From Acidobacteriota bacterium (lineage in GTDB: Bacteria; Acidobacteriota; Vicinamibacteria; Fen-336), in contig QHVJ01000077.1 in NCBI GenBank assembly GCA_003222275.1, forward strand, positions 1-61,881: DNA of 61,881 nucleotides, in the 5' to 3' direction. The notes beneath the pieces are model-generated. The model searched no databases and had not been told where the DNA came from. It worked only from the letters and a program-made list of their open reading frames with translations. Position 1 is the stretch's first letter. The number at the start of each line of letters is the position of its first letter. This document shows positions 3,602-31,665 of this stretch, piece after piece. The position numbers and the translations under genes were made by a program.

Positions 3602-3744
3602 GCTGCGAGCGAAGCGGGATTCATTCCCCCCGGGCCGCGTAGCGGACCCGCTGGATGAGCGGCGGCGAATTCATTTCGGCGCCGCGGAAGAAGCGAGCGG
3701 GGGGTCAGGGGGGCGCGCCGCTAGCGCCCCCCTGCTCGATGATG
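3602..3744. repeat. Palindromic repeat family copy (composite)
   Basis: GCTGCGAGCGAAGCGGGATTCATTCCC...GAAGCGAGCGGGGGGTCAGGGGGGCGCGCCGCTAGCGCCCCCTGCTC, clearly homologous to the units at 30625-30930. Confidence 0.85.
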
Positions 3745-6502
3745 ACGCCGCCAGCGCTTTCGTCAGGATGGAGCCGGTGGCCTGCGCCGGAGGATCCAGC
3801 CCGAGTAGCGCGGCCAGGGTCGGGGCGACGTCGATCTGGCGGATCGGTCCCAGGCTGACGCCGCGGGCCACGCCGGGACCGGCCACGACGAACCCCGCCT
3901 GCATCTCGCTGCGCTCCGGGTTCAAGCCGTGCGCACCCCGGGGAGCGACCTCTTCGACGACCGGGCCCTCGAGGGAAGCGGACACGTCGTAGCCGGGCGC
4001 GAGCGACAGGTACAGGTCGCCCCCGTTTGGCCCGCCGAAAGACGGCTCCCGGCCCGCGGCGCGGGGGTCGAGCAGATCGAGCACCACCGGCCGGGTGCTC
4101 GCCGGGTCGCGCACGCTGCGGAGCGCGGCGGCGACGGCCGCGCGCACGCCGTCTTCCTCCTCCGGGGCCACCACCCCTCCCGGCCGCGAGTTGCGATTGA
4201 TGAGGACGAAGCCCGAGTTGCCCGGGAAATAGACGGCCTTCGTTCGCGAAAGATCGATCCCGCCCCGCGCGTCCAGGGCGGCGAGGCCGGCCTGGACGAG
4301 CGCCACGTTGGGTCGCAGGAGGCGCGACGCGCCCGCCATGCCGTGGTCGCCGGCCACGGCCAGGATCGTGCGCTCGTCCGCGCGCGCCGCCAGGTGGCCC
4401 ACGTAGGCGTCCACCACCTTCAGCACCTCGTCGAGAAAGCCGTGCAGCCTCCCGGCGAGCGCGGCATCGTGGCCGGGGAGGGTCGGATCGAGATACCCCC
4501 GCCAGAGATGGAGCGCCTCGTCGGGATACGGGAGGTAGGTGACGAGCAGGTCGCGTGCGGTGCGGTCGAGGGCGAAGTCGGCGAGCCGCGTGAACTGACG
4601 AGCCACGAGCGCCACCGTCTCGAGGTAGCGCCGCTCCGCCGTGCCGTCCCCGGCCTTCCACAGCGGCGGCCCCAGCTCGCCGCGCTCGTAGGCCCGGCCG
4701 CCGCCGTTGCCCACGAATCCTCCGGAGGCCTGGTAGGCCGCCGACTCGACGCGCGGCTTGCTCGCGCGGAGCAGGTGCACGCCGGAGCGATAAAGAAGGA
4801 TGTGAGTGCCGTCGGCGGACAGCTCGAACAGGCGGAAGCAGGCCGCGGCCTCGCCACCGCCGATGCGCAAGGTCAAGCCGCCGAAGGCCGAAGCGTCGGC
4901 GCCGCGGGCCGGCGTCGGCTTGAGAACGATGCCTCCCTTCGCATCGCGATCCAGACCGACGTAGAGCGTGTCGAAGCCGTGGGTGGGATCGCCGGGATCG
5001 TCGTACAGCAGGCCGTCGATGCGCGCGCCGGACAGGGCGATCTCGATCTCCTTCGGCGCTCCATCGTGCGCGGGAAGCGCACCGCGCCACTCGCCGACGT
5101 CACGCAAGGGTAGATCGGCCGCGGTGTAGGCACGGTCGGGGATCTGAACGCCCTGGTAGGCGTTCATGAGCGTCAGCCCGCGGCCGTAGTTGCCGCCGAA
5201 GCGGCGCTCCTCGAGGAACGGGCCGAAGGGAAACGTCTGCGTGGCGGACACGACGCTGGCGTCGAGGCCCTGGCGGGCGGCGGTCACCCACAGGGGCTCG
5301 GCGACGAGGTGGGCCGACGTGTAGCCGTCGTCGCTTTGCAGCACCGACGCCCCGGGCACGGCCACGTCGTTGCCCGCGATGCCGTTGCGGTCGCTCCACG
5401 CACCGGTGAAGAGCGCGGCGTGGCCGGCGGCGGTCTTCGCGGGCAAGGTGCTGAGGGACGACGTGGCCGTGGCCCCGCGCTGGCGCAGCCGGGCCAGGCT
5501 CGGCATGACCCCGCGCGTCACCGCGTCGTCGAGGAGGTCGGCGGCGGAGCCGTCGAGGCTGACGAGGATGGCTCGCGATTGGCGGCGGACGTAGGGGACG
5601 CGAAAGGACGCATCGACGGGGGGCCGGCCCGCTTCGTCCCACGCCGAGAGCCACAGCGAGCCGATGTCGGTGGCGGAGGCGGCGAGCCGCGCGCGCAGCG
5701 CCCGGCCCTGGCGCGCGTAGAGCTTCGAATAATAGAGGTCGTCGTAGCGGTCGTCGAAGGGCGTGTCCGCCAGGTCCTGGGGCCCCGCGGACTCGCGGTC
5801 GGCGGCGAGCGCGCTCTCGGCGCCCGAGAAGGAATCCTGCAGCACCTCGAAGGTGAAGGCCACCGGATCGACGACGCGGTGAGCCGGGGCCGGACGCACG
5901 TCCGCCTCCAGCTGGCACTCGTACCGCTCCACCATCTCGCCTTCCCAGCGGTTGTGGAAGCCCGTCTGGCCGGTGAGCTGGCCGTCGTAGTTCACGACCG
6001 CGTGGAGGGGGACGTGGGCGTCGCCCTCGTAATGGCTGACGGCCGCCGCCGCGGCGAGGATCCGTGTGGGTTCGCCGGCCCGGAACGCCGCCACGAGCTC
6101 CCGATACGCCTCGCCGACGCGCCAGGGCAAGCGTCCCTTCTCGACCGCCGCCGCGCCGTGACGCACCCGGTGCTCGGTCTCGCGGCGCGGGATGTCGGGG
6201 AAGGGGAACGCGCCGAAGGCGTCCATGTCGAGGAAGTGGTTCGGCCCTTCGCCGGGCTTTCCGGCGCCCCGCCAGAGATCCGGATCGATGGCGTGCTCGA
6301 CCACGTAGGACGCGTTGCCTTCGAAAAGGGGACGCAGCGCCACCGGCAGGAGCGGGATCGCCTTCGCCGTGACCATCCGGTGGGCGGTGAAACCCCACGC
6401 CCCCGCGGGCCGGGCCGGGGCGAGGACGAGCAGCAGCGCCGCCGCGGCCGCCGCCGGCGCGCGAGGCGCGCGGCGCGCGCCGAGAATGGAGCCGGAAGAC
6501 AC
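3671..6502 (-). CDS. Secreted fusion: S1/P1 nuclease / Zn-phospholipase C-like domain plus alkaline-phosphatase-superfamily (NPP/phosphodiesterase) domain
   Basis: Signal peptide ending AGA|WGFTAHR, HFLDMD, HYEGDAHVPLH, HNRWE; then LVSLDG, TAAGHAALFTG, PDEALH, GDHGM, GAHG, DVAPT. Confidence 0.8.
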   Translation of the reverse strand: MSSGSILGARRAPRAPAAAAAALLLVLAPARPAGAWGFTAHRMVTAKAIPLLPVALRPLFEGNASYVVEHAIDPDLWRGAGKPGEGPNHFLDMDAFGAFPFPDIPRRETEHRVRHGAAAVEKGRLPWRVGEAYRELVAAFRAGEPTRILAAAAAVSHYEGDAHVPLHAVVNYDGQLTGQTGFHNRWEGEMVERYECQLEADVRPAPAHRVVDPVAFTFEVLQDSFSGAESALAADRESAGPQDLADTPFDDRYDDLYYSKLYARQGRALRARLAASATDIGSLWLSAWDEAGRPPVDASFRVPYVRRQSRAILVSLDGSAADLLDDAVTRGVMPSLARLRQRGATATSSLSTLPAKTAAGHAALFTGAWSDRNGIAGNDVAVPGASVLQSDDGYTSAHLVAEPLWVTAARQGLDASVVSATQTFPFGPFLEERRFGGNYGRGLTLMNAYQGVQIPDRAYTAADLPLRDVGEWRGALPAHDGAPKEIEIALSGARIDGLLYDDPGDPTHGFDTLYVGLDRDAKGGIVLKPTPARGADASAFGGLTLRIGGGEAAACFRLFELSADGTHILLYRSGVHLLRASKPRVESAAYQASGGFVGNGGGRAYERGELGPPLWKAGDGTAERRYLETVALVARQFTRLADFALDRTARDLLVTYLPYPDEALHLWRGYLDPTLPGHDAALAGRLHGFLDEVLKVVDAYVGHLAARADERTILAVAGDHGMAGASRLLRPNVALVQAGLAALDARGGIDLSRTKAVYFPGNSGFVLINRNSRPGGVVAPEEEDGVRAAVAAALRSVRDPASTRPVVLDLLDPRAAGREPSFGGPNGGDLYLSLAPGYDVSASLEGPVVEEVAPRGAHGLNPERSEMQAGFVVAGPGVARGVSLGPIRQIDVAPTLAALLGLDPPAQATGSILTKALAASSSSRGALAARPPDPPLASSAAPK

Positions 6503-6505
6503 GCG

Positions 6506-7129
6506 CTAACGCAGGTGGACGCTGAGGGCGACGGGCTGGCCGTTGCGCAGGACCACGGCCCGGATGTCGCTCTCGGACTGCAGCCGCGGCCACAGGCCGA
6601 TGAGCGTCGCGAGGCTGTCGATCGGCACGTCGTTGATGCTCGTGATGACGTCGCCGGCCCGGAGGCCGGCGTCGCTCAGCAGGGTCCCCTCGGGGAGCCG
6701 CGTGAGCGTGAAGCCCGCCACCTGTCCTGCTTCCGTCACCGGGACGAGCGTCGTCTCGGCCAGGATGCGCGGCACCTCCTGCCCCAGCCGCCGCTCCATG
6801 TCGCGGCGCTCCATCGATCGCGCGGGCGTCGCGGGATCTTCGGGCGGGCCGGAGGCGATCGCGGGGGGCACGGAGGGAGGGGGCGCCGCCCTCATGCCGG
6901 CCAGGCGCACGTCCACGCGCTCGCCCCCGAAGTCGAGCGACACGAGTCCCGGAGAGACGGCGGTCACGCGGCCGCCGAAGGCGGACTCCCCGACGCCGGC
7001 GATCCGCTCGCGCCCCCCCGAGCGCAGGATGGCGACGCCGGCGCCGGGGCGGCGGCTCACGATGATGCCCACCGCCTCGAGGTCGGCGGGCGGCCCGGCG
7101 AGCACGGCGAGCAGGAGCAGCGGTCCCAT
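6506..7129 (-). CDS. GspC-like type II secretion protein with C-terminal PDZ domain
   Basis: N-terminal T2SSC-like beta region (AVGIIV...VAIL) and PDZ motif AGLRAGDVITSIN, VLRNGQP. Confidence 0.7.
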   Translation of the reverse strand: MGPLLLLAVLAGPPADLEAVGIIVSRRPGAGVAILRSGGRERIAGVGESAFGGRVTAVSPGLVSLDFGGERVDVRLAGMRAAPPPSVPPAIASGPPEDPATPARSMERRDMERRLGQEVPRILAETTLVPVTEAGQVAGFTLTRLPEGTLLSDAGLRAGDVITSINDVPIDSLATLIGLWPRLQSESDIRAVVLRNGQPVALSVHLR

Positions 7130-7138
7130 CGTCGACCC

Positions 7139-7167
7139 AAGCTATGCCCCCCGCCGCGTCGTGTCAA
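7139..7167 (-). promoter_or_regulatory. Sigma70-type promoter for the gspC-like gene
   Basis: TTGACA-17 nt-TAGCTT on minus strand, 9 nt before the ATG. Confidence 0.6.
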
Positions 7168-7170
7168 TTG

Positions 7171-7208
7171 CGAGCTGGGGTGCGCCGCGAGCACCCCCCA
7201 GCTCAACG
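7171..7208. repeat. Palindromic repeat family, solo second hairpin
   Basis: GAGCTGGGGTGC-GCCGCGA-GCACCCCCCAGCTCAA matches the 3' half of the 78-bp unit. Confidence 0.8.
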
Positions 7209-7241
7209 AGAGTGCTATAGTCGCGCCCGGTCCGGAGCTCC

Positions 7242-9236
7242 GTGCACTTCCCTCGCCCTCTAGCACTGCCGCCCGCGGCCGCCGGGGCGAGCCCCGCGGC
7301 GCGCGTCCGCCAGTTCCTCCTCCACACGTGGCGGGGCCGGAGCCTGCTCGCGTCGGTGGTGATCGTGGCCCTCGACATGGCCGGCGTGGCCATGCCCGGG
7401 CTCTTGATGGCGATCGCGGTCTGCGTGCTCGTGCTCTTCGGCCTCGTGGGCCTACCCCGGCTTTCCCGATGGGTGGTGCGCCGTCTGATGTGGCGGATCC
7501 GCACGAAGATGCTCGTGTCTTATCTCTTCATTGCCGTCGTTCCTCTCGTCCTGCTCACGATCTTCTTCCTGCTCGTCGGCTTCCTCGGGCTGTCGCTGAC
7601 CGCCTCGTACATGGTCTCCTCCCAGATGGAGCGCGCCGCCCAGGACCTGCGGAACCTGGCCCAGGCCACGATGACGGATCTTCGTCTCGATGACCCGCGG
7701 CTCCGGCAGACGCTCGAGGACCGTCTCTCTCCCGCCCGCAGCCTCTACCCCAACCTGGAATGGACGCTCGTCCGCGACAGCAAGCCTCTCGCCCGGCAGG
7801 GTGCGGCGCCCGCCGCCCGGCCCGGATGGCTGCCGGCACCCTCCTTCGCCGGCGTCGTCAAGGATGAAAAGCGCGAGGCCCTCCGCGGCCTGTGGGTCCA
7901 GGGCCCGTCGTTCCTCGTTCTCGACGTGCCTACCGACCAGGCGTTCTTCGCGCGCCTCGAGGCGAGCACCGGCATCGCCGTGATCGCTTCGGACAAGGAG
8001 GTGAAGGGACGAAGGGGCGCGGACGGCGAGGTCGAGATCTCCTCCGCGGACGAGCGCAAGCTGGAGGCGAAGCTCCACGGCTCGGGCGGGGTCCTGTTCT
8101 TCTCCGTCGTCGACCGCACGGACTGGGCCACCGGCAAGAAGGACGTGATGGGCCTCGCCATCCGCTACAAGCCCGCCGAGCTCATCCGTCGCCTCTCGCC
8201 CGGCTCCCTGGACATGAGCGACGTCTTCGTGAAGGGCATGGCCATCGTGGGCGGGCTCTTCCTCGTCGTGTACGGCGGGGCCCTGCTCGTGGGCGTGCTG
8301 CTGGCGCGCTCCATCACCCGCAACATCCACGCGCTCTCGGTGGGCACGGACCGGCTGCGCCAGGGTGACTTCAGCACCACCATCCCCATCCGGACCCGCG
8401 ACCAGCTGGGCGAGCTGGCCGATTCGTTCAACATGATGGCGCGCGGGATCGAGGACCTGCTGCGCGAGCAGGCCGAGAAGCAGAGGCTCGAGGAGGAGCT
8501 GCGCATCGCCCGCCAGATCCAGATGAGCCTGCTTCCCCAGGGCGCGGTCTCCCATCCTGGCCTGCGCATCTCCGCCCTGTGCCTGCCCGCCACCGAAGTG
8601 GGAGGCGACTACTACGACCTGCTGCCGCTCTCGGAGAGCCGGCTCGCGGTCCTGGTCGCCGACGTCTCGGGGAAGGGGACCTCGGCCGCCCTCTACATGG
8701 CGGAGCTGAAGGGGCTGGTGCTGTCGCTGTCGCGCATCTACGACTCGCCGGCCCGCCTGCTCGGCGAGGCCAACCGGATCCTCGCCGCCAACATGGACCC
8801 TCGCTCGTTCGTCACGATGACGTACGCGGTCGTCGATACCGCCGAGCGCACGATGCGGTACGCGCGGGCGGGCCACAACCCGATCCTCCATCTCGAGGCG
8901 GCCACCGGGCGCACCCGCATGCTCGCCCCCGCGGGGCTCGGCCTCGGCATCGACCCCGGCGACCGGTTCGAGCAGATCCTGGAGGAAGCGATGCTGCCCC
9001 TGCGCAGCGGGGACGTCTTCCTGTTCTTCACCGACGGGCTCACCGAGGCGATGAACGAGCGCTCCGAGCTGTTCGGGGAGATGCGCCTGCGCGAGCTGAT
9101 GGAGAGCGCCGGGGAAGCGGGCGACGGGAGGCCGGTGGCGGAGCTGAAGGAGCGCATCCTGGCCGAGATCCGCCGTTTCGTCGGCGGCGCCGCCCCCCAG
9201 GACGACATGACCCTGGTCATACTGAAGGTCGTATGA
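7242..9236 (+). CDS. Membrane HAMP + SpoIIE/RsbU (PP2C) serine phosphatase
   Basis: TM helices, HAMP (RDQLGELADSFN), VGGDYYD, DVSGKG, FTDGLTE, QDDMT. Confidence 0.9.
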   Translation: MHFPRPLALPPAAAGASPAARVRQFLLHTWRGRSLLASVVIVALDMAGVAMPGLLMAIAVCVLVLFGLVGLPRLSRWVVRRLMWRIRTKMLVSYLFIAVVPLVLLTIFFLLVGFLGLSLTASYMVSSQMERAAQDLRNLAQATMTDLRLDDPRLRQTLEDRLSPARSLYPNLEWTLVRDSKPLARQGAAPAARPGWLPAPSFAGVVKDEKREALRGLWVQGPSFLVLDVPTDQAFFARLEASTGIAVIASDKEVKGRRGADGEVEISSADERKLEAKLHGSGGVLFFSVVDRTDWATGKKDVMGLAIRYKPAELIRRLSPGSLDMSDVFVKGMAIVGGLFLVVYGGALLVGVLLARSITRNIHALSVGTDRLRQGDFSTTIPIRTRDQLGELADSFNMMARGIEDLLREQAEKQRLEEELRIARQIQMSLLPQGAVSHPGLRISALCLPATEVGGDYYDLLPLSESRLAVLVADVSGKGTSAALYMAELKGLVLSLSRIYDSPARLLGEANRILAANMDPRSFVTMTYAVVDTAERTMRYARAGHNPILHLEAATGRTRMLAPAGLGLGIDPGDRFEQILEEAMLPLRSGDVFLFFTDGLTEAMNERSELFGEMRLRELMESAGEAGDGRPVAELKERILAEIRRFVGGAAPQDDMTLVILKVV

Positions 9237-9940
9237 GCGCCGCGCGCGACGCCCAGCTCCACGCGCTCGAGGACCGGCTCGGCCACCGCTTCGTGGACCT
9301 CTCCCTGCTCGACCGCGCGCTCACCCACAGCAGCCTCGCCAACGAGGCGGCCGCGGCCGAGGGCCGGCACAACGAGCCGCTCGAGTTCCTGGGCGACTCG
9401 GTGATCGGCTTCGTGATGGCGGACCTGCTCCATCGCCGCGATCCCGAGGGACGCGAGGGAGGAAAGAGCAAGATGCGCGCCCAGCTCGTCTCGGCGCGCA
9501 GCCTCGCGCGACGGGCGGCGGAGCTGGGGCTGCCCGAGCTGCTGCGGCTCGGCCGCGGGGAGGAGAAGTCCGGGGGACGCAAGAAGACCGCGCTCTGGGC
9601 CGACGCCTACGAGGCGGTCATCGCCGCGCTGTACCTGGACGGCGGCCTGGAAGCCGCCCACCGCTTCGTGAGCGCGGAGTTCGCGACGGACCTCGAGCGC
9701 CCGGCCCTTCCCACCGAGGACCACAAGAGCCTCCTGCAGGAGATGCTGCAGGCGCGAGGGGATCCGGTGCCGGAGTACGAGCTGGTCGCCGAGGAGGGTC
9801 CGGATCACCGCCGCCGCTTCCGCGTGCGCTGCGTCGTGCGGGGAGAGGCGCTGGCGGAGGGCGAGGGCTTCTCGAAGAAGCAGGCGCAGCAGGAGGCGGC
9901 CCGCAACGCGCTCGCCCGGCTCGCGGGCGCCCTCGGCTGA
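9233..9940 (+). CDS. rnc: Ribonuclease III
   Basis: ALTHSS, NEPLEFLGD, ADAYEAVIAALYLDGG, dsRBD (KSLLQE...SKKQAQQEAA); ATG 9233 overlaps upstream stop. Confidence 0.95.
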   Translation: MSAARDAQLHALEDRLGHRFVDLSLLDRALTHSSLANEAAAAEGRHNEPLEFLGDSVIGFVMADLLHRRDPEGREGGKSKMRAQLVSARSLARRAAELGLPELLRLGRGEEKSGGRKKTALWADAYEAVIAALYLDGGLEAAHRFVSAEFATDLERPALPTEDHKSLLQEMLQARGDPVPEYELVAEEGPDHRRRFRVRCVVRGEALAEGEGFSKKQAQQEAARNALARLAGALG

Positions 9941-9941
9941 G

Positions 9942-10472
9942 TCAGGGTGGAGGAGTCTGGATGGTGGCGAAGCCGCCCTGCCGCCGGACGTCGTCGGCGG
10001 TTCCGCACGCGCGGTCAGGTCCGCACGAGGCGATCTCGTAATAGGACCCTTCCACCCGGTAACGATAGGGCTCGTGCCAGCGGTCGTAGTACGGGTCGTG
10101 GGGTGACTTCGGCCGCACCCAGTGCCGCACGAAGTCACGGAAGGCTTCCGGGTCGGGGTACCGGTTGGTCGAGGCGTACTCCGCGTCCAGCGCGGCGGCC
10201 ATCTCCCCCATCTCCATGCGAGTCCGTGCGGTCCCCCACCAGGCGTTGAGCTCGCCGACGATGTCGCGGAAGTGCCGCGCGTTGACGTCGATGAGATAGA
10301 CGAGGAGCAGGGCGGGAATCAGCTTCTTGAGGAAGCGCGCCCAGAAGTGGCTTCGCTGCCGCCGGTAGGTCAGCTCCAACAGGATGCGATAGAACGCGAC
10401 CGACCAGGGGTGCGGCCGCGGGGGAGGAGGATCTGGGGGCGTAGCCAAGGCTGCGAGCGGAGCGGGATTCAC
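9942..10472 (-). CDS. GspG/pseudopilin-like membrane protein (start uncertain, 10472 or 10448)
   Basis: TM helix then YP...DRWHEPYRY...SCGPDRACGTADD resembling the T2SSG C-terminal motif. Confidence 0.55.
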   Translation of the reverse strand: MNPAPLAALATPPDPPPPRPHPWSVAFYRILLELTYRRQRSHFWARFLKKLIPALLLVYLIDVNARHFRDIVGELNAWWGTARTRMEMGEMAAALDAEYASTNRYPDPEAFRDFVRHWVRPKSPHDPYYDRWHEPYRYRVEGSYYEIASCGPDRACGTADDVRRQGGFATIQTPPP

Positions 10473-10497
10473 TCCCGCGAAGCGACCACCCCCCAGC

Positions 10498-10500
<3 letters not shown>
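10443..10500. repeat. Internally deleted copy of the palindromic repeat
   Basis: AGCCAAGGCTGCGAGCGGAGCGGGATTCACTCCCGCGAAGCGA (nearly identical to 30614 onward) joined to CCACCCCCCAGCTCA. Confidence 0.88.
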
Positions 10501-11577
<1,077 letters not shown>

Positions 11578-11593
11578 TCCAAAAGTATAAGGT

Positions 11594-13024
11594 CTATCGC
11601 CGCGCGGCCGCGCCTTGAATCCTCTCCCACGCCCGGCGTACGTGGCGCTCCTCGGTGCGCAGGTTGCCCACCGCGAGCCGGAGCACGGTGCGGCCCTTGA
11701 GCTTCGTGTGGGACAGGTAGGCTTCGCCCGTCGCGTTGACCGCCTCCATCATCTCCGCGTTGCGGCGGTCCTGCTCCTCGGGGCTCGATCCGGCGAAGCG
11801 GGCGCGGAAGCAGACGACCGAGAGCGGCGACGGAGCGGCGATCTCGAAGCCGGGATCGGCTTCGACCAGGCCGCGAAACAGGCCGGCGAGCCGCACGTGC
11901 TCGCGGAGCCGGGCCGCGATGCCTTCCGCGCCGAAGGCCCGGATCACCATCCACAGCTTGAGCGCGCGGAATCGGCGGCCGAGGCTCACGCCGTAGTCCA
12001 TCAGGTTCGGGGCCGCGGCGTCCTCGGCCGTCTTGAGGTACTCCGGCAGCACGCTGAAGGCCCGCCGCACGACCTCCGGCCGCCGGGTGTAGAGGACGCT
12101 CAGGTCCACGGGCACGAACATCCATTTGTGGGGGTTCACGACGAGCGAATCGGCCCGCTCGCATCCCGCGAGCACCCAGCGCAGCTCGGGTACGACCGCC
12201 GCGCTGCCCGCGTAGGCCGTGTCGACGTGGAGCCACAGCCCCTCGCGCGCGCAGACGTCGGCGATCGCCGGCACCGGATCGATGCTGGTCGTGGACGTGG
12301 TCCCGACCGTCGCGGTGACGGCGAAGGGGGTGAAGCCCGCCGCCCGGTCCTCGGCGATGGCCCGGGCCAGCTCCGCCGTCTGCATCCGGTACTCGTCGTC
12401 GACGGGGATCGTGCGCAGCCCCTCCTGCCCGATGCCGAGGACGATGCCGGCCTTCTCCACCGACGAGTGCGCCTGATCCGAGGCGTACATGCGCAGCCGC
12501 GCCTGGCCCACCAGGCCGCGCCGGCGGACGTCGAGGCCGGGCACGGCCTCACGCGCCGCCGCCAGGGCCACGAGCGTCGAGGTGGACGCGGTGTCCTGGA
12601 TGACGCCGAACAGGCCCGCAGGCAACCCCAGCATCTGGCGGAGCCAGTCCAGGACCACCAGCTCCAGCTCGGTGGCCGCCGGCGCCGTCTTCCACAGCAT
12701 CGCGTTCGCGTTGAAGGCGGCGGCCAGCGCCTCGGCGAGGACGGCGGGACCGGGAGAGGAGTTCGCGAAGTACGCGAAGAACCCGGGATGGTTCCAGTGG
12801 GTGAGCCCGGGGACGATGACCCGCTCGACGTCGGCCAGGATCGCCTCCAGCGGCTCGGCGCGGGACGGGGGAGCCGGAGGCAGCGCGCGCCGGATCTCGC
12901 CGGGCCGCACCCGCGAGAGCACGGGGTAGCGCTCGGCGCCCTCGAGGTACCCCGAGATCCAGTCGACGAGCCGGTGCGCCTCGGACCGGAACGCGTCGGG
13001 GTCGAGGTCCCCGAAGGGCGTCAT
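11594..13024 (-). CDS. PLP-dependent aromatic-L-amino-acid decarboxylase family protein
   Basis: [45 protein letters not shown]; start MTPFG overlaps the upstream stop. Confidence 0.9.
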
Positions 13025-13726: not shown

Positions 13727-14017
13727 GTGGACCGACAGCACGCTCTGAGGAGCAGAGAAGAACTCGAGGACGATGAGGTCGAGGACGCCGTGGACGACGA
13801 AGCCGGCCTCGCCGCCGACGACGAGGACGAGAAGGACGAGGACGAGGACGACGAAGAAGAGGACGACGAGGACGACGACGTGGAAGACGACGATGACGAC
13901 GACGACGATGATGACGACGACGAGGACGATGAGGACGAGGACGAGGACGAGGAGGACGACGACATCGACGACGAGGACGACGATGAGGAGGAGGAGGAGG
14001 AGGAAGAGGAGTCATGA
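13727..14017 (+). CDS. Small, extremely acidic (poly-Asp/Glu) protein, 96 aa
   Basis: AAAGGAGG RBS then GTG; GAC/GAG/GAT/GAA codons held in one frame; stop overlaps the lipA ATG. Confidence 0.7.
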
Positions 14018-16989: not shown

Positions 16990-18261
16990 ATGCGGGACGT
17001 CGTCGTGGCCGGCGCCGTGCGGACACCGATCGGACGGTTCGGTGGCGCGCTCTCGACCCTCAGTCCCGCCCAGCTCGGGGCCGCCGCGGCCCGGGAAGCG
17101 CTGCGCCGCGCCGGCGTCGCCCCCGCCCAGGTGGACGACGTGCTCTTCGGCTGCGCTCGCCAGGCGGGGGCCGGGCCCAACGTCGCGAGGCAGGTGGCGT
17201 GGCGCGCAGGCGTCCCCCCGGAGATCCCGGCGGCCACCCTCAACATGGCCTGCGCCAGCAGCCTGAAGGCGATCGACCTCGCCTTTCGCGCCGTGCGCGA
17301 CGGAGATGCGCAGGTGGTGCTGGCCGGCGGGGTGGAGTCGATGAGCCGCGTGCCCTACCTGCTGACCGGGGCGCGATGGGGTTATCGCATGGGGGACCAG
17401 CCGCTCGTCGACGCGATGTACCAGGACGGCTTCCTCTGCCCGCTTTCCGAGATGATGATGGGGGAGACGGCCGAGCGGCTGGCCGAGCAGTATCACGTCG
17501 GCCGCGAGGAGCAGGACGCGTTCGCCCTGCGCAGCCAGCAGCGGGCGGCCCGCGCGCAAGTTCAAGGACGCTTCGACGCCGAGATCGTCCCGGTTCATGT
17601 ACCGCGCGTTCCGCAGCGAAGGCTTTCCTCTGACGCCGAGCGAGGATTCACTCCGCGCGAGGCGCTTGGATTGAAGATGGGGCCGGAGCGAGGACGCGCA
17701 TCTGATGAAGACGACGTGAGCCGAGACGAGCATCTGCGGCCGGAGACGACGGCGGCCACGCTCGCGAAGCTGCCCCCCGTGTTCAAGACGGAAGGGGGGA
17801 CCGTCACGGCGGGCAACTCGTCCGGGATCACGGACGGAGCCGCGGCGATGGTGGTGATGTCGGCCGAGCGGGCCGCCGAGCTGGGCGTGAAGCCCATGGC
17901 CACGGTGGTGGGTCTGGCTTCGGCGGGAGTCGACCCGCGCGTGATGGGCATCGGGGTGGTGCCCGCGGTGCGCCGCCTGCTCGAGAAATGCTCCCTGCGG
18001 CTCCAGGACTTCGACCTCGTGGAGCTGAACGAAGCGTTCGCCGCGCAGGTCATCGCCTGCGACCGCGAGCTGCGCCTCGATCCCGAGCGCCTCAACGTCA
18101 ACGGGGGAGCCATCGCGCTCGGCCATCCCATCGGCGCCACCGGCGCCCGCCTGGTCGTGAGCCTGCTGCACGAGATGGCGCGGCGCCGGGTGGGGCGCGG
18201 ACTGGCGACGCTCTGCGTGAGCGGCGGCATGGGCATGGCGGCGGCGTTCGAGGCGGTCTGA
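16990..18261 (+). CDS. Acetyl-CoA acyltransferase (thiolase) with an internal insertion of roughly 30-38 aa
   Basis: [42 protein letters not shown]. Confidence 0.93.
17594..17709. repeat. Palindromic element inserted in frame in the thiolase
   Basis: Ends TTCAT..GCGCGTTC / GGACGCGC..ATGAA, central GGATTCACTCC hairpin, TTTCCTCT shared with the 31518 element; atypical codons. Confidence 0.7.
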
Positions 18262-20574: not shown

Positions 20575-20582
20575 ACGGATTC

Positions 20583-20664: not shown

Positions 20665-20679
20665 AAGAGGAAATAGCCC

Positions 20680-23052: not shown

Positions 23053-23675
23053 TCCGCGTCAACCTCCTCGCCCCCGAGCGGCCGACCAAGACGAAGAAGG
23101 CCCGGTCGGTGTCGGTCGCCCCCGGCGCGGTGCAGGTCTACCTCTTCCTGGCCCTCTTCGCGGGGGGCGCGCTCGTGGTCTGCGCCGCCCTCTGGTGGTA
23201 CGAGTCCACCAAGATCAAGAAGCTCGACGCCGACATCGCGACCGCGGAGCAGCGCCAGCGCGAGCTGCAGGCGATCAAGGTCCAGGTCGACGCCCTGGAA
23301 GCGAAGCGCCGGACCTTCCAGCAGAAGGTGGACCTCATCGAGCGCCTCAAGGCCGCGCAGTCGGAGCCCGTCCATCTGCTGGACGAGATCTCGAAGAACC
23401 TTCCCGACTTCGTGTGGCTGACGTCGCTGGACCAGGCGGGGCCGATCGTCAAGCTCTCGGGGCAGAGCAGCGGGTACACCTCCGTCGCCGACTTCATCAG
23501 CGCGCTGCAGCGGAGCGGCTATTTCCCGCTCGTGGACCTCGTCTCCAGCGCGGAGAACAACAACATCGTGACCTTCACCCTGCAGGCTAACTTCAAGAGC
23601 CCGGAAGTGGCGGCCAGGGAAGCCGCCGCCGCCGCCCGGCCTCCCATCCCGGGGTCGACCCCGGCCAGGCCGTAG
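23049..23675 (+). CDS. pilN: Type IV pilus assembly protein PilN
   Basis: MIRVNLL motif, TM helix, coiled coil, PDFVWLTS. Confidence 0.92.
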   Translation: MIRVNLLAPERPTKTKKARSVSVAPGAVQVYLFLALFAGGALVVCAALWWYESTKIKKLDADIATAEQRQRELQAIKVQVDALEAKRRTFQQKVDLIERLKAAQSEPVHLLDEISKNLPDFVWLTSLDQAGPIVKLSGQSSGYTSVADFISALQRSGYFPLVDLVSSAENNNIVTFTLQANFKSPEVAAREAAAAARPPIPGSTPARP

Positions 23676-23690
23676 GCGGGGAAAGGAAAG

Positions 23691-24305
23691 ATGGCGGACA
23701 ACGCACTCACGAAGCTCTCGCTCGGCGGACAGCTCGGCGTCTCCGTGGCCGCCGCCGTCGTCATCGGGGTGGCCTTCTACTACGGGTACTTCTCGGCCGC
23801 CCGGGAGGAGGAGAACACGAAGAGCGCGAAGCTCGAAGGGCTTCGGCAGGAGATCCGGCAGCTGGAGGTGACCGCCAACAAGCTCCAGGAGTTCCAGCGC
23901 GAGGTCGCGCAGCTGGAGGCCAAGCTCGAGACGCTCAAGCGGATCCTGCCTCCCGAGAAGGAAACCCCCGACCTGATGAGGAAGGTGCAGGCGCTGGCCT
24001 CGCAGTCCAACCTCACGATCAAGAACTTCACGCCCAGCGCGGTCATCAACCGCGATTTCTACCAGGAATGGCCGATCAACATGGCCGTCGACGGCAGCTA
24101 CCACAACCTGGGGATGTTCTTCGACCGCGTCAGCCGCCTCTCGCGGCTGGTGAACATCGGGAACCTCAAGATCGCCAACAAGGGCGAGCAGACCGTGAGC
24201 AACACGATCTCGGCCCAGTGCGTCGCGACGACCTTCGTATACGTGGAACCTTCCCCGCCGCCAGTGCGGCCCGGTGCGGCGCCGGCCCCGACCGGAGCCC
24301 GCTGA
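23691..24305 (+). CDS. pilO: Type IV pilus assembly protein PilO
   Basis: TM, coiled coil, LPPEKETPDL, GSYHNLGMFFDRVSRLSRLVN. Confidence 0.92.
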   Translation: MADNALTKLSLGGQLGVSVAAAVVIGVAFYYGYFSAAREEENTKSAKLEGLRQEIRQLEVTANKLQEFQREVAQLEAKLETLKRILPPEKETPDLMRKVQALASQSNLTIKNFTPSAVINRDFYQEWPINMAVDGSYHNLGMFFDRVSRLSRLVNIGNLKIANKGEQTVSNTISAQCVATTFVYVEPSPPPVRPGAAPAPTGAR

Positions 24306-24814
24306 TGAGCCGCCCGGCGACGCTCGCGCTCTTGATCCTGGCCCTGGGTGTGGCCGGGGCCGCACCCGCCCTCGCCCAGGCACCGGCGGCGCCTCCCTCT
24401 CCGGCGTCCCCCGCCGCCGACAGCCTGAAGTCGATCGGGACGGACGTGCCGGGCTCCTCCGAGGGCTACACCTACAACCCGATGGGCCGCCGGGATCCCT
24501 TCGTGAGCCTGTTGAAGCCGGTGTCGCCTGACCAGGGCCCCAAGACGAGGCGGCCGGGCATGGAAGGCTTCCTGATCCAGGAGGTGGCGCTCAAGGGCAT
24601 CGTGAAGACCCCCAAGGGCTACATCGCGATGCTCCTGGGAACCGACGGCAAGTCGTACTTCGTGGGCGTCGGCCAGCGCCTCTTCGATGGCGTGGTGACC
24701 GCCATCGACGCGACCACGGTGACCTTCCGGCAGGAGGTGACGGACCCCCTGTCGACCGTGAAGAGCCGCGACGTGAAGAAGACCCTGTATCCGTCCGAGG
24801 AGGCGAGGCAATGA
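24305..24814 (+). CDS. pilP: PilP-like protein
   Basis: YNPMGRRDPF motif, LKGIV; lies between pilO and pilQ. Confidence 0.8.
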   Translation: MSRPATLALLILALGVAGAAPALAQAPAAPPSPASPAADSLKSIGTDVPGSSEGYTYNPMGRRDPFVSLLKPVSPDQGPKTRRPGMEGFLIQEVALKGIVKTPKGYIAMLLGTDGKSYFVGVGQRLFDGVVTAIDATTVTFRQEVTDPLSTVKSRDVKKTLYPSEEARQ

Positions 24815-27189: not shown

Positions 27190-27253
27190 CGGAGGAATGC
27201 TGACGATGCACGCAGTCGAAGCCAGGTTCCCGATGCGATCGGGGAGGAGACTC

Positions 27254-27832
27254 ATGAACGCAAAGGTCCTCGTCATGGCGCTCGGCGCTCTCGCCATGGT
27301 CGGATGCACGCCCGACTGGGCCAAGAACGGCGACGCCCCCGTGGTGCTCCTGATGACCGCGATCAACAACGGCTCGCCGCTCAGCTCCGACCTCAGCATC
27401 TCCACCGGCGCCGTCTGCCCGGACATCGTTCCGCTTCGTCTGGAGAACCACTTCAAGAACCCGAACGTGACGATCACGGGCTTCCGGCACGACTTCACGG
27501 TCGAGAGGTACGAGGTGCGCTACTTCCGGTCCGACGGCCGCAACACGGAAGGGGTCGACGTGCCCTACCGGATCAGCGGCAACGTCGCGCAGGAGGTCAT
27601 CGAGGAGAGCACGGCCACGCTGCAGCTCGAGGTCGTCCGGCGGCAGGCCAAGCTCGAGCCGCCCCTCGCCAACCTCGCCGGGGCGAACCCGCCCGTCCTC
27701 ACCATGTTCGCCGAAGTGACGCTTCACGCGCGCACCACCACCGGCCAGACGACGAACCCGGTCTCGGCGCGGCTCCATATCGATTTCGCCCAGTTCGACG
27801 ACGACGTGACCACCTGTCCCGTCGCCCAGTGA
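27254..27832 (+). CDS. Hypothetical lipoprotein
   Basis: RBS GGAGGAG; signal peptide with lipobox MVGC. Confidence 0.7.
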   Translation: MNAKVLVMALGALAMVGCTPDWAKNGDAPVVLLMTAINNGSPLSSDLSISTGAVCPDIVPLRLENHFKNPNVTITGFRHDFTVERYEVRYFRSDGRNTEGVDVPYRISGNVAQEVIEESTATLQLEVVRRQAKLEPPLANLAGANPPVLTMFAEVTLHARTTTGQTTNPVSARLHIDFAQFDDDVTTCPVAQ

Positions 27833-27879
27833 GCGGAGCCTCTCATGCGATCTGCGAGTGCAATGAGCGAGGAAGGCCT

Positions 27880-28704
27880 ATGACGCGGAACGATAGCAGG
27901 GCCCGGGGCCGCCGCCGGCTCCGGACGTGGGCAGGCATCGGCCTGGTCGTGGCCTACGCCGGCTGCGGTTTCGACGGGGTCGAGGTTCCGGAGCTCATCG
28001 GACCGTCGGAGCAAGGCACGTCGATCGCGCTCACCGCGAGCCCCGACGTAATGGTGGCGGACGGGTTCAGCACCTCCCTCGTCACCGCGACCGTCCGCGA
28101 CCAGAACGGGCAGCCCGCGGCGGGCCGCGACATCTTCTTCGCGATATCGGACGCGAGCGGAAACTTCGCCGACATCGGCACGCTGCGCTCGCTGTCCACG
28201 GGCGTCGACGTGGGGACGGGGCTCCTGGTGCGGACCAACGCCCAGGGCATCGCCGCCGTCGTCTACGAGGCGCCCGCCCGCACCGACGCCACCGCAAACC
28301 AGAAGGTGCGCGTGAGTGCCCGCCCGGTCGGGACTGATGCCACGTCCGCTCTTTACCGCAGCGTCGCCATCGAGCTGCGCTCGGCCGAGTCGCGGTTGTT
28401 CCCGCAGGGTGGGAAAACGACTCCAAGCTGCAGCTTCGTCGTCCAGACCACGGGCAAGTCGACCTGCACGACGGTCAGCAGCTGCACGATCCCGATCAAC
28501 ACGTCGGTCCTCTTCCAGTCCACGGCGTTCTCCGCGGGCGGAACGATCATCCGCTACTTCTGGAGCTTCGGGAACGGCAAGACTGCGGACCATCCGGACG
28601 TGTCGACGTCCTACAGCATCGCGGGCACATATACCGTCACCCACCTCGTCACCGACAACACCGGAGGACAGGCGGCCTGCCAGGCGACGATCACCGCCCA
28701 GTAG
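27880..28704 (+). CDS. Lipoprotein with Ig-like (invasin-type) and PKD domains
   Basis: YAGC lipobox; ADGFSTSLVTATVRDQNGQP; YFWSFGNG...GTYTVT PKD motif. Confidence 0.75.
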   Translation: MTRNDSRARGRRRLRTWAGIGLVVAYAGCGFDGVEVPELIGPSEQGTSIALTASPDVMVADGFSTSLVTATVRDQNGQPAAGRDIFFAISDASGNFADIGTLRSLSTGVDVGTGLLVRTNAQGIAAVVYEAPARTDATANQKVRVSARPVGTDATSALYRSVAIELRSAESRLFPQGGKTTPSCSFVVQTTGKSTCTTVSSCTIPINTSVLFQSTAFSAGGTIIRYFWSFGNGKTADHPDVSTSYSIAGTYTVTHLVTDNTGGQAACQATITAQ

Positions 28705-28742
28705 CGGCGGCGTAGAGGTGCCATAGCTTGTGGGATAGAGTG

Positions 28743-28772
28743 ATGGGGCGGGCAGCAATGCCCGCCCCATTT
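28743..28772 (+). terminator. Stem-loop (possible terminator or processing hairpin)
   Basis: ATGGGGCGGGCA-GCAA-TGCCCGCCCCAT, 12-bp perfect stem, short T tail. Confidence 0.55.
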
Positions 28773-28790
28773 CCATGAAGAAGAGCGTTC

Positions 28791-30236
28791 TTGGCCTCTA
28801 ACCCGCGCATCGAGGACCTTCGCAGGAGGCTCGACAGGGAGCCGGGCTCGCGTCTGTTCGCGCAGCTCGCCGAAGAGCTGCGCAAGGACGGCGACCTGGA
28901 GGAGGCGATCCGCGTCTCGCGCGAGGGCCTGCAGAAGCACCCGGCCTATCCGTCCGCGCGCATGACGCTGGGCCGCGCCCTGCTCGACACCGGCGACATC
29001 GCCGCCGCCCGGACCGAGTTCGAGATCGTCCTCAAGGGTGCCCCCGACAACATCCTGGCCAGTCGATTCCTCGGGGAATGCCTGGAGGGGGTCGGCGACC
29101 TCGCCGGCGCGCGTGACCGCTTCAAGGCGACGCTCGCCCTGGCCCCGGGCGACAAGGTGGTCACCGCCCACCTGCAGGAGGTGGAGGCGAAGCTCAAGAA
29201 GGCGGCGCCCGCGGGGGCCGCACCCGCGGCCACGGGAATCCCGCGGGGCCGTGAGGAACCGGCGGAAGCGCCGATCCCGCTCTCCCGGGTGGACGAGCCA
29301 ATGGAGCTGGAGCGCTCGGCCGAGGCCCGCACCATCGCTTCCCGGCCCCAGCCCGGGCCTTCTCCCGAGTCGACGGTGTTGATGTCCGCGACGCCGGCGC
29401 GGCCACCGGCACCGCCCGCGCCGCCCGCCCCGCCGGCCCGTCCGGCGGCGAACGATGAGGGAGACGCACCGCCCATTCCGCTCGTCGCGGCCGAAGAGGA
29501 CTTCGAGCTGGAGCGGCCGTACGGAGCACCGGACCCGAGCGCGCCGCCGGCGCCGTCCGCGCCCGCGGCGCACACCGCCGCGGCCACCGCCGGCGGGTTC
29601 GAGTCATCCGGTCCCGCCGCCGAGTTCGAGTTCGACCTCGCGCCGGAAGGCGGGGTGGCGGGCGCGGCGCCGGAACCCTGGGAACCGTCCCCGGCGGCCA
29701 CGGTCCGCCTGCCCGAGCCCGTGCCGGAGCCCGAGGCCGAGCCGCCGATCCCACGCCCGCCGCCGGCCATCGCGGCGCCCGTGCCGCCGCCGCCGATGCC
29801 CGTTCCCCCGCCCCCGCCCCGGGAGCGCGAAGCGATCCCGCAGACCGAGGTCCCCGAGCGAGCCGCCGCGCCGCCGCTCCCGCCACCGGTCTTCGCTCCG
29901 ACCCCGCCCCCGCCGCCTCGGATGGACGTCGCTCCGGCTCCGGAGGCCGACGAGCTGACGTCTTCGACGCTGGCCGAGCTGTATTTCAACCAGGGCTTCA
30001 CCGACAAGGCCATCGAGGTCTATCGCCAGCTCCTTCAGCGCGAGCCCGGCAACCAGCGTGGCCGCACGCGGCTCGCCGAGCTCGAGGCGCTGGAGCGGCG
30101 GCTCGCGGAAGAAGAAACGCGCGCCGCCGGGGCCGCGGGCGGCGGCCCGGCGGATGCGGCGGCGGGACGACGTCAGGCCATCGAGCGGACGATCGCGCGC
30201 CTCGAAGGCCTCCTGGCCGCCCTCCGGAAGGAGTAG
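28791..30236 (+). CDS. TPR protein with Pro/Ala-rich linker
   Basis: N-terminal TPRs (FAQLAEELRK..), C-terminal TLAELYFNQG..AIEVYRQLL TPR. Confidence 0.8.
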   Translation: MASNPRIEDLRRRLDREPGSRLFAQLAEELRKDGDLEEAIRVSREGLQKHPAYPSARMTLGRALLDTGDIAAARTEFEIVLKGAPDNILASRFLGECLEGVGDLAGARDRFKATLALAPGDKVVTAHLQEVEAKLKKAAPAGAAPAATGIPRGREEPAEAPIPLSRVDEPMELERSAEARTIASRPQPGPSPESTVLMSATPARPPAPPAPPAPPARPAANDEGDAPPIPLVAAEEDFELERPYGAPDPSAPPAPSAPAAHTAAATAGGFESSGPAAEFEFDLAPEGGVAGAAPEPWEPSPAATVRLPEPVPEPEAEPPIPRPPPAIAAPVPPPPMPVPPPPPREREAIPQTEVPERAAAPPLPPPVFAPTPPPPPRMDVAPAPEADELTSSTLAELYFNQGFTDKAIEVYRQLLQREPGNQRGRTRLAELEALERRLAEEETRAAGAAGGGPADAAAGRRQAIERTIARLEGLLAALRKE

Positions 30237-30238
30237 AC

Positions 30239-30601
30239 GTGAGCGCCTTCTCCGACACGCTCAAGCAGGTGGCCGCCCGCGTACCCGAGACGCAGCTCCT
30301 CATCGTGATGGGTACGGACGGCATTCCGATCGAGAAGCTCGTGGTCCGCCCGGCCGCGAACCTGGAAGCGGTGGCCGCCGAGTTCACGTCTCTGCTCAAG
30401 TCGGGAGTGGCCGTGGCCGCGGACACCGGGCTCGGCCAGCTGAAAGAGCTGTCCGTCGTCACCGAGAAGATGATCGCCCTTCTCGTTGCGATCACGCCGG
30501 AGTACTTCCTGTTCGCCGGGCTCGCGCCGGGGGCGCTCATGGGGAGGGCGCGCTTCGCGCTGCGCGTGGCCGGCATCGCGCTCGAGCGCGAGTTTGTCTA
30601 G
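30239..30601 (+). CDS. Roadblock/LC7 domain protein (MglB/MglC-like)
   Basis: VMGTDGIPIE, GRARFALR; 120 aa. Confidence 0.8.
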   Translation: MSAFSDTLKQVAARVPETQLLIVMGTDGIPIEKLVVRPAANLEAVAAEFTSLLKSGVAVAADTGLGQLKELSVVTEKMIALLVAITPEYFLFAGLAPGALMGRARFALRVAGIALEREFV

Positions 30602-30613
30602 GAGAGGAAACAG

Positions 30614-30930
30614 AGCCAAGGCTGCGAGCGGAGCGGGATTGACTCCCGCGAAGCGAGCGGGGGGTTTGGGGGGTGCGCCGCTAGCACCCCCCAGCTCAAT
30701 GACGAGCGGAGCGGGATTGACTCCCGCGAAGCGAGCGGGGGGTTTGGGGGGTGCGCCGCTAGCACCCCCAGCTCAATGACGAGCGGAGCGGGATTGACTC
30801 CCGCGAAGCGAGCGGGGGGTTTGGGGGGTGCGCCGCTAGGATCCCCCAGCTCAATGACGAGCGGAGCGGAATTCACTTCCGCGCAGCGAGCGGGGGTTCA
30901 AGGGGGCGCGCCGCTAGCGCCCCCTTGCTC
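30614..30930. repeat. Tandem array of four ~78-bp double-hairpin units
   Basis: Units start at 30625, 30703, 30780 and 30858 after an AGCCAAGGCTG lead-in; units 1-3 near identical, unit 4 divergent with compensatory changes. Confidence 0.95.
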
Positions 30931-30938
30931 ACCAACGA

Positions 30939-30968
30939 TTGACAACCCGTTGCGGCGGGGCAAATAAT
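30939..30968 (+). promoter_or_regulatory. Sigma70-type promoter of accB
   Basis: TTGACA-18 nt-AATAAT. Confidence 0.5.
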
Positions 30969-31017
30969 ACTTCTTTCTGCGAGCTCAGGACGCATCCCCA
31001 GAGTAGAGGAGAGACAT

Positions 31018-31518
31018 TTGGACCTCAGGGAGCTCAAGGAGATCCTCCAGATCCTCGAAGAGAAGGAGATCACCGAGTTCGAGCTGGAGGAGGAGGGCAT
31101 GAAGCTGCGGATCCGCAAGGCCGCCGCCTCTCCCAACCATTCGTCCGGCTCCGCGGCGCCGCTTTCCCTCGTTCCCACCGTGATCCCCTCGTCCCCGAAC
31201 GTCACCGGTCCCGTCCCGCTGGCGCCGGCCCCCGCGGTGGAGGCCTCTTCGCCCGTCCCCACCGCGGAGGAGCAGGGCCTGGTGACGGTGAAGAGCCCGA
31301 TCGTGGGCACGTTCTATCGCGCGCCCGACCCCGGCTCGCCTCCCTTCGTGAACGTGAGCGACCACGTGCGCGTGGGCCAGGTCCTCTGCATCATCGAAGC
31401 GATGAAGCTGATGAACGAGATCGAGGCGGAGGTGGCGGGGGAGATCGTCAAGGTCCACCACGAGAGCGGGCAGCCCGTCCAGTACGGCGAGCCTCTGTTC
31501 GTCATACGGCCCGACTAA
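31018..31518 (+). CDS. accB: Biotin carboxyl carrier protein
   Basis: SPIVGTFY, EAMKLMNEI biotinylation motif. Confidence 0.96.
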   Translation: MDLRELKEILQILEEKEITEFELEEEGMKLRIRKAAASPNHSSGSAAPLSLVPTVIPSSPNVTGPVPLAPAPAVEASSPVPTAEEQGLVTVKSPIVGTFYRAPDPGSPPFVNVSDHVRVGQVLCIIEAMKLMNEIEAEVAGEIVKVHHESGQPVQYGEPLFVIRPD

Positions 31519-31665
31519 TCAACGCGATGCCCCAGCGCGGGTGCTCCGCCAGTGTTCGGCCGCCGAAGCCGGAGCGTTTCCTCTACGGCGCGCGCCGGAT
31601 TGATTCTGGCGCGCGCGCATTGATGACGCCCCGCGCGCAGACGAAGGCGGCCGCATCCAGTTGAT
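31518..31665. mobile_element. MITE-like 148-bp palindromic element
   Basis: Terminal IRs ATCAACGCGATGC / GCATCCAGTTGAT (11/13); central hairpin GCGCGCGCCGG-ATTGATT-CTGGCGCGCGC. Confidence 0.6.

Follow-up and report, generated by a model that had tools for sequence, protein, structure and literature searches.

In many bacteria, the space between genes is crowded with small hairpin repeats, the spread of which is understood only where it goes with a REP-associated tyrosine transposase (RAYT), REP standing for repetitive extragenic palindrome. Rickettsia palindromic elements (RPEs) are palindromes of ~100 to 150 bases, for which no mobilizer is known and which can enter genes in frame, so that the protein gains a peptide segment, while the BOX repeats of pneumococci and the mycobacterial interspersed repetitive units (MIRUs) are small modular repeats that carry one module head to tail and lie between the genes of operons. 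As described by Di Nocera et al. (2013, PMC3733652), CGTC REPs are palindromic families without a dedicated transposase, located mostly downstream of coding regions and in some cases inside genes, and the same authors mention Y1 genes flanked by terminal inverted repeats in Acidobacteria. Quentin et al. (2018, PMC6006769) describe class 3 TnpA_Y1 genes with hairpins in Acidobacteria and Planctomycetes, with ~600 copies in Solibacter usitatus, and the genomes listed in the RepRanger paper include three other ones from Acidobacteriota. Here, we analyzed a stretch of 61,881 nucleotides (the window), contig QHVJ01000077.1 (C351 in our numbering) of the Acidobacteriota draft genome GCA_003222275.1 (6.76 Mb, 628 contigs, 94% complete, ~71% G+C), which holds six loci of dispersed hairpin elements sharing the apex sequence ATTSAYT. 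The best reading is that of a superfamily of non-autonomous selfish repeats of the REP/BIME/RPE type (BIME, bacterial interspersed mosaic element) with a new architecture; with a probability of about 65%, the six loci represent two related families of small, gene-less, structure-dependent selfish repeats native to one order of soil Acidobacteriota.

The apex ATTSAYT was found 10 times in the window compared with 3.5 expected, a number that 0 of 100 shuffles got to, and its nine plus-strand sites (3619, 3669, 10467, 17646, 30638, 30716, 30793, 30871, and 31599) fall exactly where a sequence-only reading of this DNA had named them, with the flanking stems as it gave them. Genome-wide, ATTSAYT occurs at 555 sites, 211 of which cap a hairpin; the latter grouped by sequence into clusters of 180 and 25 (205 in total), plus 6 singletons. 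TTCAC is the most frequent 5-base hairpin loop of the genome (148 hairpins on 29 different 6-bp stems), and TTCAT caps 58 hairpins on 16 stems. The recurrence of the apex hairpin is far above chance. A second hairpin with the loop GCCGCTA or GCCGCGA was present as proposed at 3706-3734, at 7177-7206, and in four array units, including the switch of its stem from TGC/GCA to CGC/GCG. The six loci had been taken for one element system; they are indeed dispersed and related, but by sequence they belong to two related families and not to a single one.

Family 1 has as its core a 78-base two-hairpin unit with an 11-base leader, and in the consensus and an alignment of 53 sequences the two-hairpin unit measures 78-98 bases. 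Its modules are, in order, the leader (consensus AGCMAMRGCTG), hairpin A, two G6 runs, hairpin B, and the tail AGCTCAATGA. Hairpin A is an irregular helix of the form GAGCG-N-AG / stem / ATTCAYT / stem / CG-N-AGCGAG, the purine-rich mismatches of which would pair as G.A, and hairpin B has G6/C6 basal pairs and a variable top. When the 78-base unit was used as a blastn query against this genome, 179 matches on 104 contigs were obtained, and an nhmmer profile built from 94 full copies yielded 224 matches at 191 loci on 120 contigs, bearing out the expectation of further copies. The 191 loci comprise 165 single, 21 double, 3 triple, and 2 quadruple ones, and the units run head to tail in all 26 multi-copy loci, with mixed orientation in none; the leader precedes only solo copies or the first unit of arrays. 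Fourteen loci lie within 300 bases of a contig end. We also observed a family 1 subfamily with a B-then-A order, where hairpin A is preceded by a G-run hairpin that has another loop and 42-base arrays consist of hairpin A and only the last 14 bases of hairpin B (G000:C312:3380-3620, C611:25820-26020, C79:6820-6960, C447:31000-31180, and C31:30020-30200).

In the window, family 1 is represented on the plus strand by a long form, a fragment, an internally deleted copy, and an array. The long form (3601-3742) begins 2 bases past a TAA at 3597-3599 with a short leader, AGCTG. Its first apex, ATTCATT at 3619-3625, has lost its 3′ stem to replacement, and a second apex hairpin is inserted (stems 3659-3668 and 3676-3685, apex 3669-3675), followed by two G-runs, hairpin B at 3706-3734 (loop GCCGCTA at 3717-3723), and a tail to 3742; the covariance model matched at 3666-3748 (E 2e-13) and 3592-3664 (E 1e-4). 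Both hairpins that had been noted here, at 3615 and 3666, are present, the former with its apex and stem but with an incomplete 3′ stem side; they are not separate elements but parts of one 142-base long form. Such forms, 142-150 bases in length with a second apex hairpin in place of the 3′ side of the first, recur as 23 further matches of at least 85 bases in this genome and as at least 25 copies in G004, a genome of the same genus. The TAA that abuts the long form ends a 19-codon hydrophobic open reading frame (ORF), MTAVVTVIVALATVALRSE, at 3540-3599, which comes shortly after a PBP1-type gene at 1168-3507 and might encode a small membrane peptide.

The fragment at 7170-7209 consists of hairpin B (loop GCCGCGA) and the tail only (covariance model E 0.0013). 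The copy at 10443-10502 (E 4e-7) retains the leader (10443-10453), hairpin A (apex 10467-10473), the C-run, and the tail, hairpin B being internally deleted, and the TCA at 10498-10500 in its tail is the stop codon of a converging mnmA-like gene on the opposite strand. The array at 30614-30935, recognized by the covariance model, has a leader at 30614-30624 and four head-to-tail units (30625-30702, 30703-30779, 30780-30857, and 30858-30935), the third of which is damaged; Tandem Repeats Finder reported it as 30625-30931 with a period of 78, 3.9 copies, and 92% matches. It is located between a stop codon at 30599-30601 and the promoter-like TTGACA of accB (31018-31518, plus strand; Pfam Biotin_lipoyl). 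The promoter-like pair TTGACA ... AATAAT before accB (30941-30975) is kept in most aligned relatives, and it is intact here with the array just upstream.

By description only, this organization resembles that of BOX and MIRU, which are also modular, repeat one module head to tail, and are intergenic in operons. To our knowledge, neither a constant-loop hairpin on a free stem nor G.A-type internal loops are features of BOX or MIRU. Integron attC sites were rejected as a candidate, since the leader and tail hold no GTTRRRY core, the arrays hold no ORFs, and the 191 loci are dispersed, an integron integrase not having been searched for.

Family 2 is one long irregular hairpin of four helices and ~120 bases, made up of an outer stem, GAGCG motifs, a small helix, a long apex hairpin, and a TTGATGA-like motif; the apex and the GAGCG motifs are common to both families. 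The nhmmer search revealed 70 matches on 57 contigs of this genome, two of which are in the window on the plus strand. One (17606-17706, E 1.5e-12; apex ATTCACT at 17646-17652) lies in the frame of a thiolase gene of the acetyl-CoA acetyltransferase type (16990-18261, plus strand; Pfam Thiolase_N and Thiolase_C), and the other (31544-31661, E 1.4e-17; apex ATTGATT at 31599-31605) lies in the spacer between accB and accC (31661-33028, plus strand; Pfam Biotin_carb_N, CPSase_L_D2, and Biotin_carb_C) and has the outer stem CGGCCGCC/GGCGGCCG and a long apex hairpin. The family 1 covariance model gave non-significant scores at these two loci (E 0.09 and 0.5).

The sequence-only reading had proposed that the stems co-vary under constant loops, and this was upheld in both families. 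For family 1, RNAalifold was applied to the 53 aligned sequences, which came from this genome and three named metagenome-assembled genomes (MAGs); both hairpins were predicted, and 8 of 23 pairs had compensatory changes. Within a 25-pair structure, 91.3% of the cells were paired, and 8 pairs and 38 cells had changed on both sides, which 0 of 500 shuffles equaled, and sliding the structure along the alignment left only 0-3 pairs changed on both sides. The 23 family 2 sequences had compensatory changes in 14 of 18 pairs, with 93.2% of the cells paired versus 69.9% in shuffles and 82 cells changed on both sides versus 26, again with 0 of 500 shuffles equal. Among 124 full family 1 copies, the cells of stem A comprised 695 Watson-Crick, 15 G-T, 2 A-C, and 28 other combinations, and those of stem B comprised 1,280, 24, 15, and 20, respectively; in hairpin B, the two variable stem segments occurred in every one of their six combinations. 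The apex in these copies was ATTCACT in 83, ATTCATT in 28, and ATTGACT in 6. A change from CGAGCG to CGCGCG occurs on both sides of hairpin A together, which in our reading would convert tandem G.A mismatches to Watson-Crick pairs. Between the taxonomic families f1 and f3 of the order, the GAGCG-N-AG and CG-N-AGCGA flanks, the TTCAC loop, the G-runs, and the C-run are constant, while the stem A sequences are many and the top of hairpin B ranges from 7 to ~35 bases.

Strong covariation, together with loops and internal-loop motifs conserved across the order, also speaks for functional RNA modules, that is, 3′-end stabilizers, terminators, or protein-binding hairpins that are selected copy by copy and have spread secondarily. 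The same is true of the wobble pairs, more of which are kept on the plus strand (39 G-T against 17 A-C in the two stems), of the copies that lie flush after stop codons, and of one soil RNA library in which two short contigs carry copies 92-93% alike; these contigs derive from other copies and cannot show transcription of this locus. We regard such modules as an unlikely explanation. There is no U-tract after hairpin B, and a search of the whole window against Rfam gave 0 matches at the gathering score and nothing at relaxed thresholds either (best over the array, E 0.25), so that neither family matches a described RNA there. Further points against these modules came from the comparison of relatives and from the orientation of the copies.

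As the sequence-only reading had suggested, we compared orthologous sites in relatives, and every window copy except that between accB and accC was missing there. The array is wholly absent from the orthologous stop-to-promoter spacer in 7 of 7 aligned relatives. In G004, the site syntenic with the 3601 copy is empty, ~27-30 bases are missing at the site of the 7170 copy, and 18 bases stand where this genome has 80 at the 10443 copy, which is absent. The leader is not found in the empty orthologous sites, and it therefore belongs to the element. Of the accB-accC spacers, only those of this genome and G004 hold a family 2 copy, and the G004 copy is inverted and has a different central stem; in eight of nine other relatives the spacer is too short for a copy (17-70 bases), and in the ninth, L102, it is intermediate at 106 bases. 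As judged from these alignments, the copies represent insertions, and sister species differ in them. For RNA modules under per-copy selection, it is unfavorable that every window copy is dispensable in relatives, that the same spacer is occupied in opposite orientations in sister species, and that one copy lies within a coding frame.

That copy, in the thiolase gene, had been called intragenic, and it is indeed in frame. The thiolase orthologues of 14 relatives match only residues 1-205 and ~239-423, with few codons between, and in the present gene 38 residues stand in place of GKKGEDIV (net +30); the frame is open and both Pfam domains are kept. At the junction, ~102 bases replace 12, with a loss of 12 bases and no duplication. 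In-frame landing inside a gene is thus possible, as is loss of hairpin B by internal deletion (10443 copy). In this behavior, the family resembles RPEs, in which the host gene also stays open; unlike RPEs, the repeats live in an unrelated host, and intragenic candidates are few, as only 1 of 67 testable family 2 matches (the thiolase copy) and 16 of 216 family 1 matches lie within a continuous coding-like frame.

The copies are mostly intergenic. When intergenic was defined as an overlap of at most 10 bases with ORF calls from a crude GC3-based heuristic, 164 of 224 family 1 matches qualified, against a coding fraction of 0.77. At 85 of 191 loci, an element end has a gene stop between -25 and +60 bases from it (5′ end, 45 loci; 3′ end, 60 loci, 36 of them with the stop at -11 to -1); we read such positions as flush because the profile takes in a few flanking bases. 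The flanking genes are convergent at 49 loci, divergent at 29, co-oriented tandem at 43, and anti-oriented tandem at 53, so the tandem contexts revealed no orientation preference relative to genes (43 versus 53). Unlike a fixed-orientation cis-regulatory RNA, the repeats occur in both orientations, are opposite in sister species, and have empty orthologous sites; together with the stops at either end, the lack of an orientation preference counts against RNA modules.

Of the 78 genomes of the order, 60 carry copies according to the family 1 model, namely, 41 of 58 genomes of family f1 plus this genome, 0 of 1 of f2, and 18 of 18 of f3. The best E values were 1e-24 in the same genus, 1e-17 to 1e-20 in the same family, and 1e-9 to 1e-11 in f3, and the copy number within one genus ranged from 0 to 45. 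In a phylum-wide sample of 151 genomes, family 1 matches were confined to this genome and one other f1 genome, and none of the 149 sampled genomes outside family f1 had one. For the hairpin B pattern, the matches listed included 58 of 60 loci in an "Acidobacteria bacterium" MAG as well as a "Vicinamibacteria bacterium" MAG and a single 2.9-kb contig from a "Polarisedimenticolia" MAG. This last contig (L086, Candidatus Polarisedimenticolia) holds a family 1 copy at 104.6 bits, as high as same-genus copies, although no other genome outside the order matched; the short contig may be mis-binned. Viral contigs, searched with the hairpin A pattern, and plasmids, searched with blastn, yielded no match. 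In three soil DNA runs the flanks had a depth of 11-20 and the repeat bins one of 300-11,860, the latter summed over many copies and organisms, and the joints read across the array had sides of at most 30 bases, probably from other copies, and are uninformative on array-length variants. No description of these two repeat families was found in the literature, and with the Rfam result this agrees with the claim that the system is undescribed.

Like the REPs and BIMEs of Proteobacteria, with their GTAG REPs, REPINs (REP doublets forming hairpins), and RAYTs, the repeats are high-copy extragenic hairpins, often just downstream of genes, that build modular mosaics or clusters, differ between close relatives, and are occasionally found inside genes. 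They differ in size and design (78-145 bases with two unlike hairpins versus 20-40 bases), in having no GTAG tag, in forming head-to-tail arrays and not inverted doublets, and in lacking a cognate Y1 gene in most carriers. The sequence-only reading had pointed to the classical route, spread by a RAYT or another IS200-like HUH-Y1 enzyme encoded once elsewhere in the genome; such an enzyme would move the hairpins in single-stranded form by cutting and pasting. Several properties are in keeping with it: HUH enzymes recognize conserved-loop hairpins on free stems; the G.A mismatches would form on one strand only, and G-T exceeds A-C; no target-site duplication was detected when words of 3, 4, 5, 6, and 8 bases were compared at each boundary offset tried (best excess, 6 of 90 copies); and, according to Quentin et al. 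(PMC6006769), the class 3 TnpA_Y1 genes of Acidobacteria have abundant hairpins on their flanks.

Searches for the enzyme itself did not support this route. PF01797 (Y1_Tnp) had 0 matches in this 94% complete draft and 0 in three other carriers; of the 78 genomes of the order, 16 had a match (11 of 60 carriers versus 5 of 18 non-carriers), and none of these was among the 18 f3 genomes, all of which are carriers. No element adjoins any of the six Y1 loci examined (best E 0.09), a six-frame search of this genome for the HUH...Y motif gave nothing, and TnpB (PF07282) had 0 matches in it. The repeats have no GTAG, CGTC, or CnGA foot, GTAG appearing only where the variable base happens to be T, and their arrays are never inverted doublets. 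Elements derived from IS200/IS605 insert just 3′ of a fixed target of 4-5 bases, which persists in empty sites, but the conserved leader of the repeats is not found in such sites. In the 40-contig genome G020, with 90 matches, copies on the two strands are intermixed along the largest contig, as seen by eye with the origin unmapped. Spread by a RAYT or other Y1 enzyme is thus very unlikely.

With the CGTC REPs, as Di Nocera et al. present them, the repeats have in common their palindromic nature, the lack of a transposase, the downstream-of-gene bias, and the occasional intragenic copy, and they differ in being much longer and modular, with conserved loops and no CGTC tag. The hairpins of class 3 Y1 genes are from the same phylum, are likewise atypical in structure, and number in the hundreds; by the description in PMC6006769, they are set apart in that they flank a Y1 gene and have a CnGA foot, while our repeats have no linked Y1 gene and carry a stem-adjacent CG-N-A.

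A mobilizer of another type was not apparent either. Among 330 ORFs neighboring copies, no transposase recurred; the recurrent neighbors were kinases, TonB-type barrels, TPR proteins, and ABC proteins, all ordinary paralogous families. No autonomous form was found: the copies contain no genes, and none of the split copies surrounds one. The repeats conform in this respect to the dispersed, non-autonomous system of many gene-less copies that had been predicted. Eight pairs of inverted neighbor copies lie 390-3,136 bases apart, and the genes scanned between five of them were housekeeping genes, including those for chorismate synthase and riboflavin, or had no Pfam match. A 165-residue ORF between two copies on contig C401 was rejected as a candidate, being lipoprotein-like and without a Pfam match, as was the single IS110 gene of the genome, which no element adjoins.

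We found a third repeat, which forms palindromic cassettes with tandem CTCTGCGGCCTCTGCG arms and has 326 matches at 155 loci, none in the window. The arm sequence is given as CTCTGCGGCCTCTGCG, CTCTGCGG, or CGCAGAGG; 50 cassettes have both arms, with centers of 16-300 bases (e.g., G000:C625:42024-42205, C538:20889-21069, and C471:21995-22176). Next to the single IS110-family transposase gene of this genome (L181, G000:C593:12870-15198), direct and inverted CTCTGCGGCCTCTGCG units are present on one side. Small PF05635-like ORFs at G000:C600:16426-18387 and C120:11075-14227 have another common hairpin upstream, CCCCTCTCCCTGAAAGGAGAGGGG and then GGGTGAGGGTC.

Family 1 copies lie within 40 bases of a cassette arm at 19 of 191 loci, compared with ~0.9 expected. 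A family 1 copy is the center of 6 of the 50 two-armed cassettes, and at 12 further loci a single arm is located always 5′ and never 3′ of the copy, at a distance of 10-40 bases (mostly 16-22). These numbers would suit a miniature inverted-repeat transposable element (MITE)-like cargo of a double-strand transposase, with the cassettes as the vehicle of family 1 and the CTCTGCGGCCTCTGCG arms as its terminal inverted repeats. We consider this highly improbable, for 172 of the 191 loci have no arms, and the elements themselves lack the terminal inverted repeats of MITEs: the inverted end of family 1 is only the 5-bp AGCTG/CAGCT, and the outer stems of family 2 co-vary in sequence and differ between copies. 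The lack of a target-site duplication is likewise against it, as are the IS110 gene without an adjoining element and the three PF05635-like ORFs of this genome, which were rejected as mobilizers for being without CTCTGCGG arms.

New copies of the two families would arise through a trans-acting factor (in the sequence-only reading, a protein encoded elsewhere), which we propose would recognize the folded single strand through constant loops on free stems and would insert the element without target duplication, preferentially at other hairpin-forming sites. This factor would not be a Y1/RAYT transposase in most carriers, and the copies, once inserted, would probably be tolerated passengers in 3′ untranslated regions. 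The cassette link, the flush stops, the nesting in the long form, and the two hits on the accB-accC spacer together suggest that insertion may occur at hairpin tips. Hairpin A, the ATTCAYT apex and symmetric GAGCG-N-AG internal loops of which recur in both families and across the order, might accordingly be pictured as the recognition module of a vertically inherited non-Y1 enzyme that would place the elements in other hairpins, at their tips, and would duplicate no target. The proposed targets would be terminators just past stops, the centers of CTCTGCGG-armed palindromes, and hairpin A itself in the long form. We put this proposal forward as a doubtful one.

Several points weigh against the reading of the repeats as selfish families. 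No mobilizer was found, and we infer transposition from presence and absence in relatives. The empty and filled sites come from species 80-90% alike, and for this reason the junctions are fuzzy outside the thiolase gene. Every genome is a draft MAG, a type of assembly from which mobile genes go missing, and 14 loci lie at contig ends. The gene calls are those of a crude GC3 heuristic. The loops and helices conserved across the order and the excess of G-T over A-C fit selection at the RNA level equally well, and the tie of family 1 to the CTCTGCGGCCTCTGCG palindromes could reflect co-mobilization by the machinery of that element.

Two other features of the window were recorded. A weak family 1 model match at 28716-28784 was rejected as an ordinary terminator-like hairpin and not a family member; the G+C-rich hairpin there, at 28743-28777 and followed by ATTT, is downstream of a gene ending at 28704. 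A long GAC/GAG-type triplet run at 13816-14011 (period 3-21) probably encodes an acidic low-complexity protein segment.

Families without a RAYT, such as the CGTC REPs, remain unexplained, and the present case adds two abundant ones with an unusually informative anatomy (constant loops, freely co-varying stems, and internal loops rich in purines), both of which persist across an order of uncultured soil bacteria, most genomes of which have no Y1 enzyme. The covariation marks the bases that a mobilizing or binding protein must read, and an oligonucleotide of hairpin A could serve as bait for it. If insertion at hairpin tips is true, it would be a new, structure-targeted way to move REP-like DNA. 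In practical terms, the repeats fragment assemblies of soil Acidobacteria and confuse gene callers; they also provide stop codons and can extend enzymes by peptide loops.

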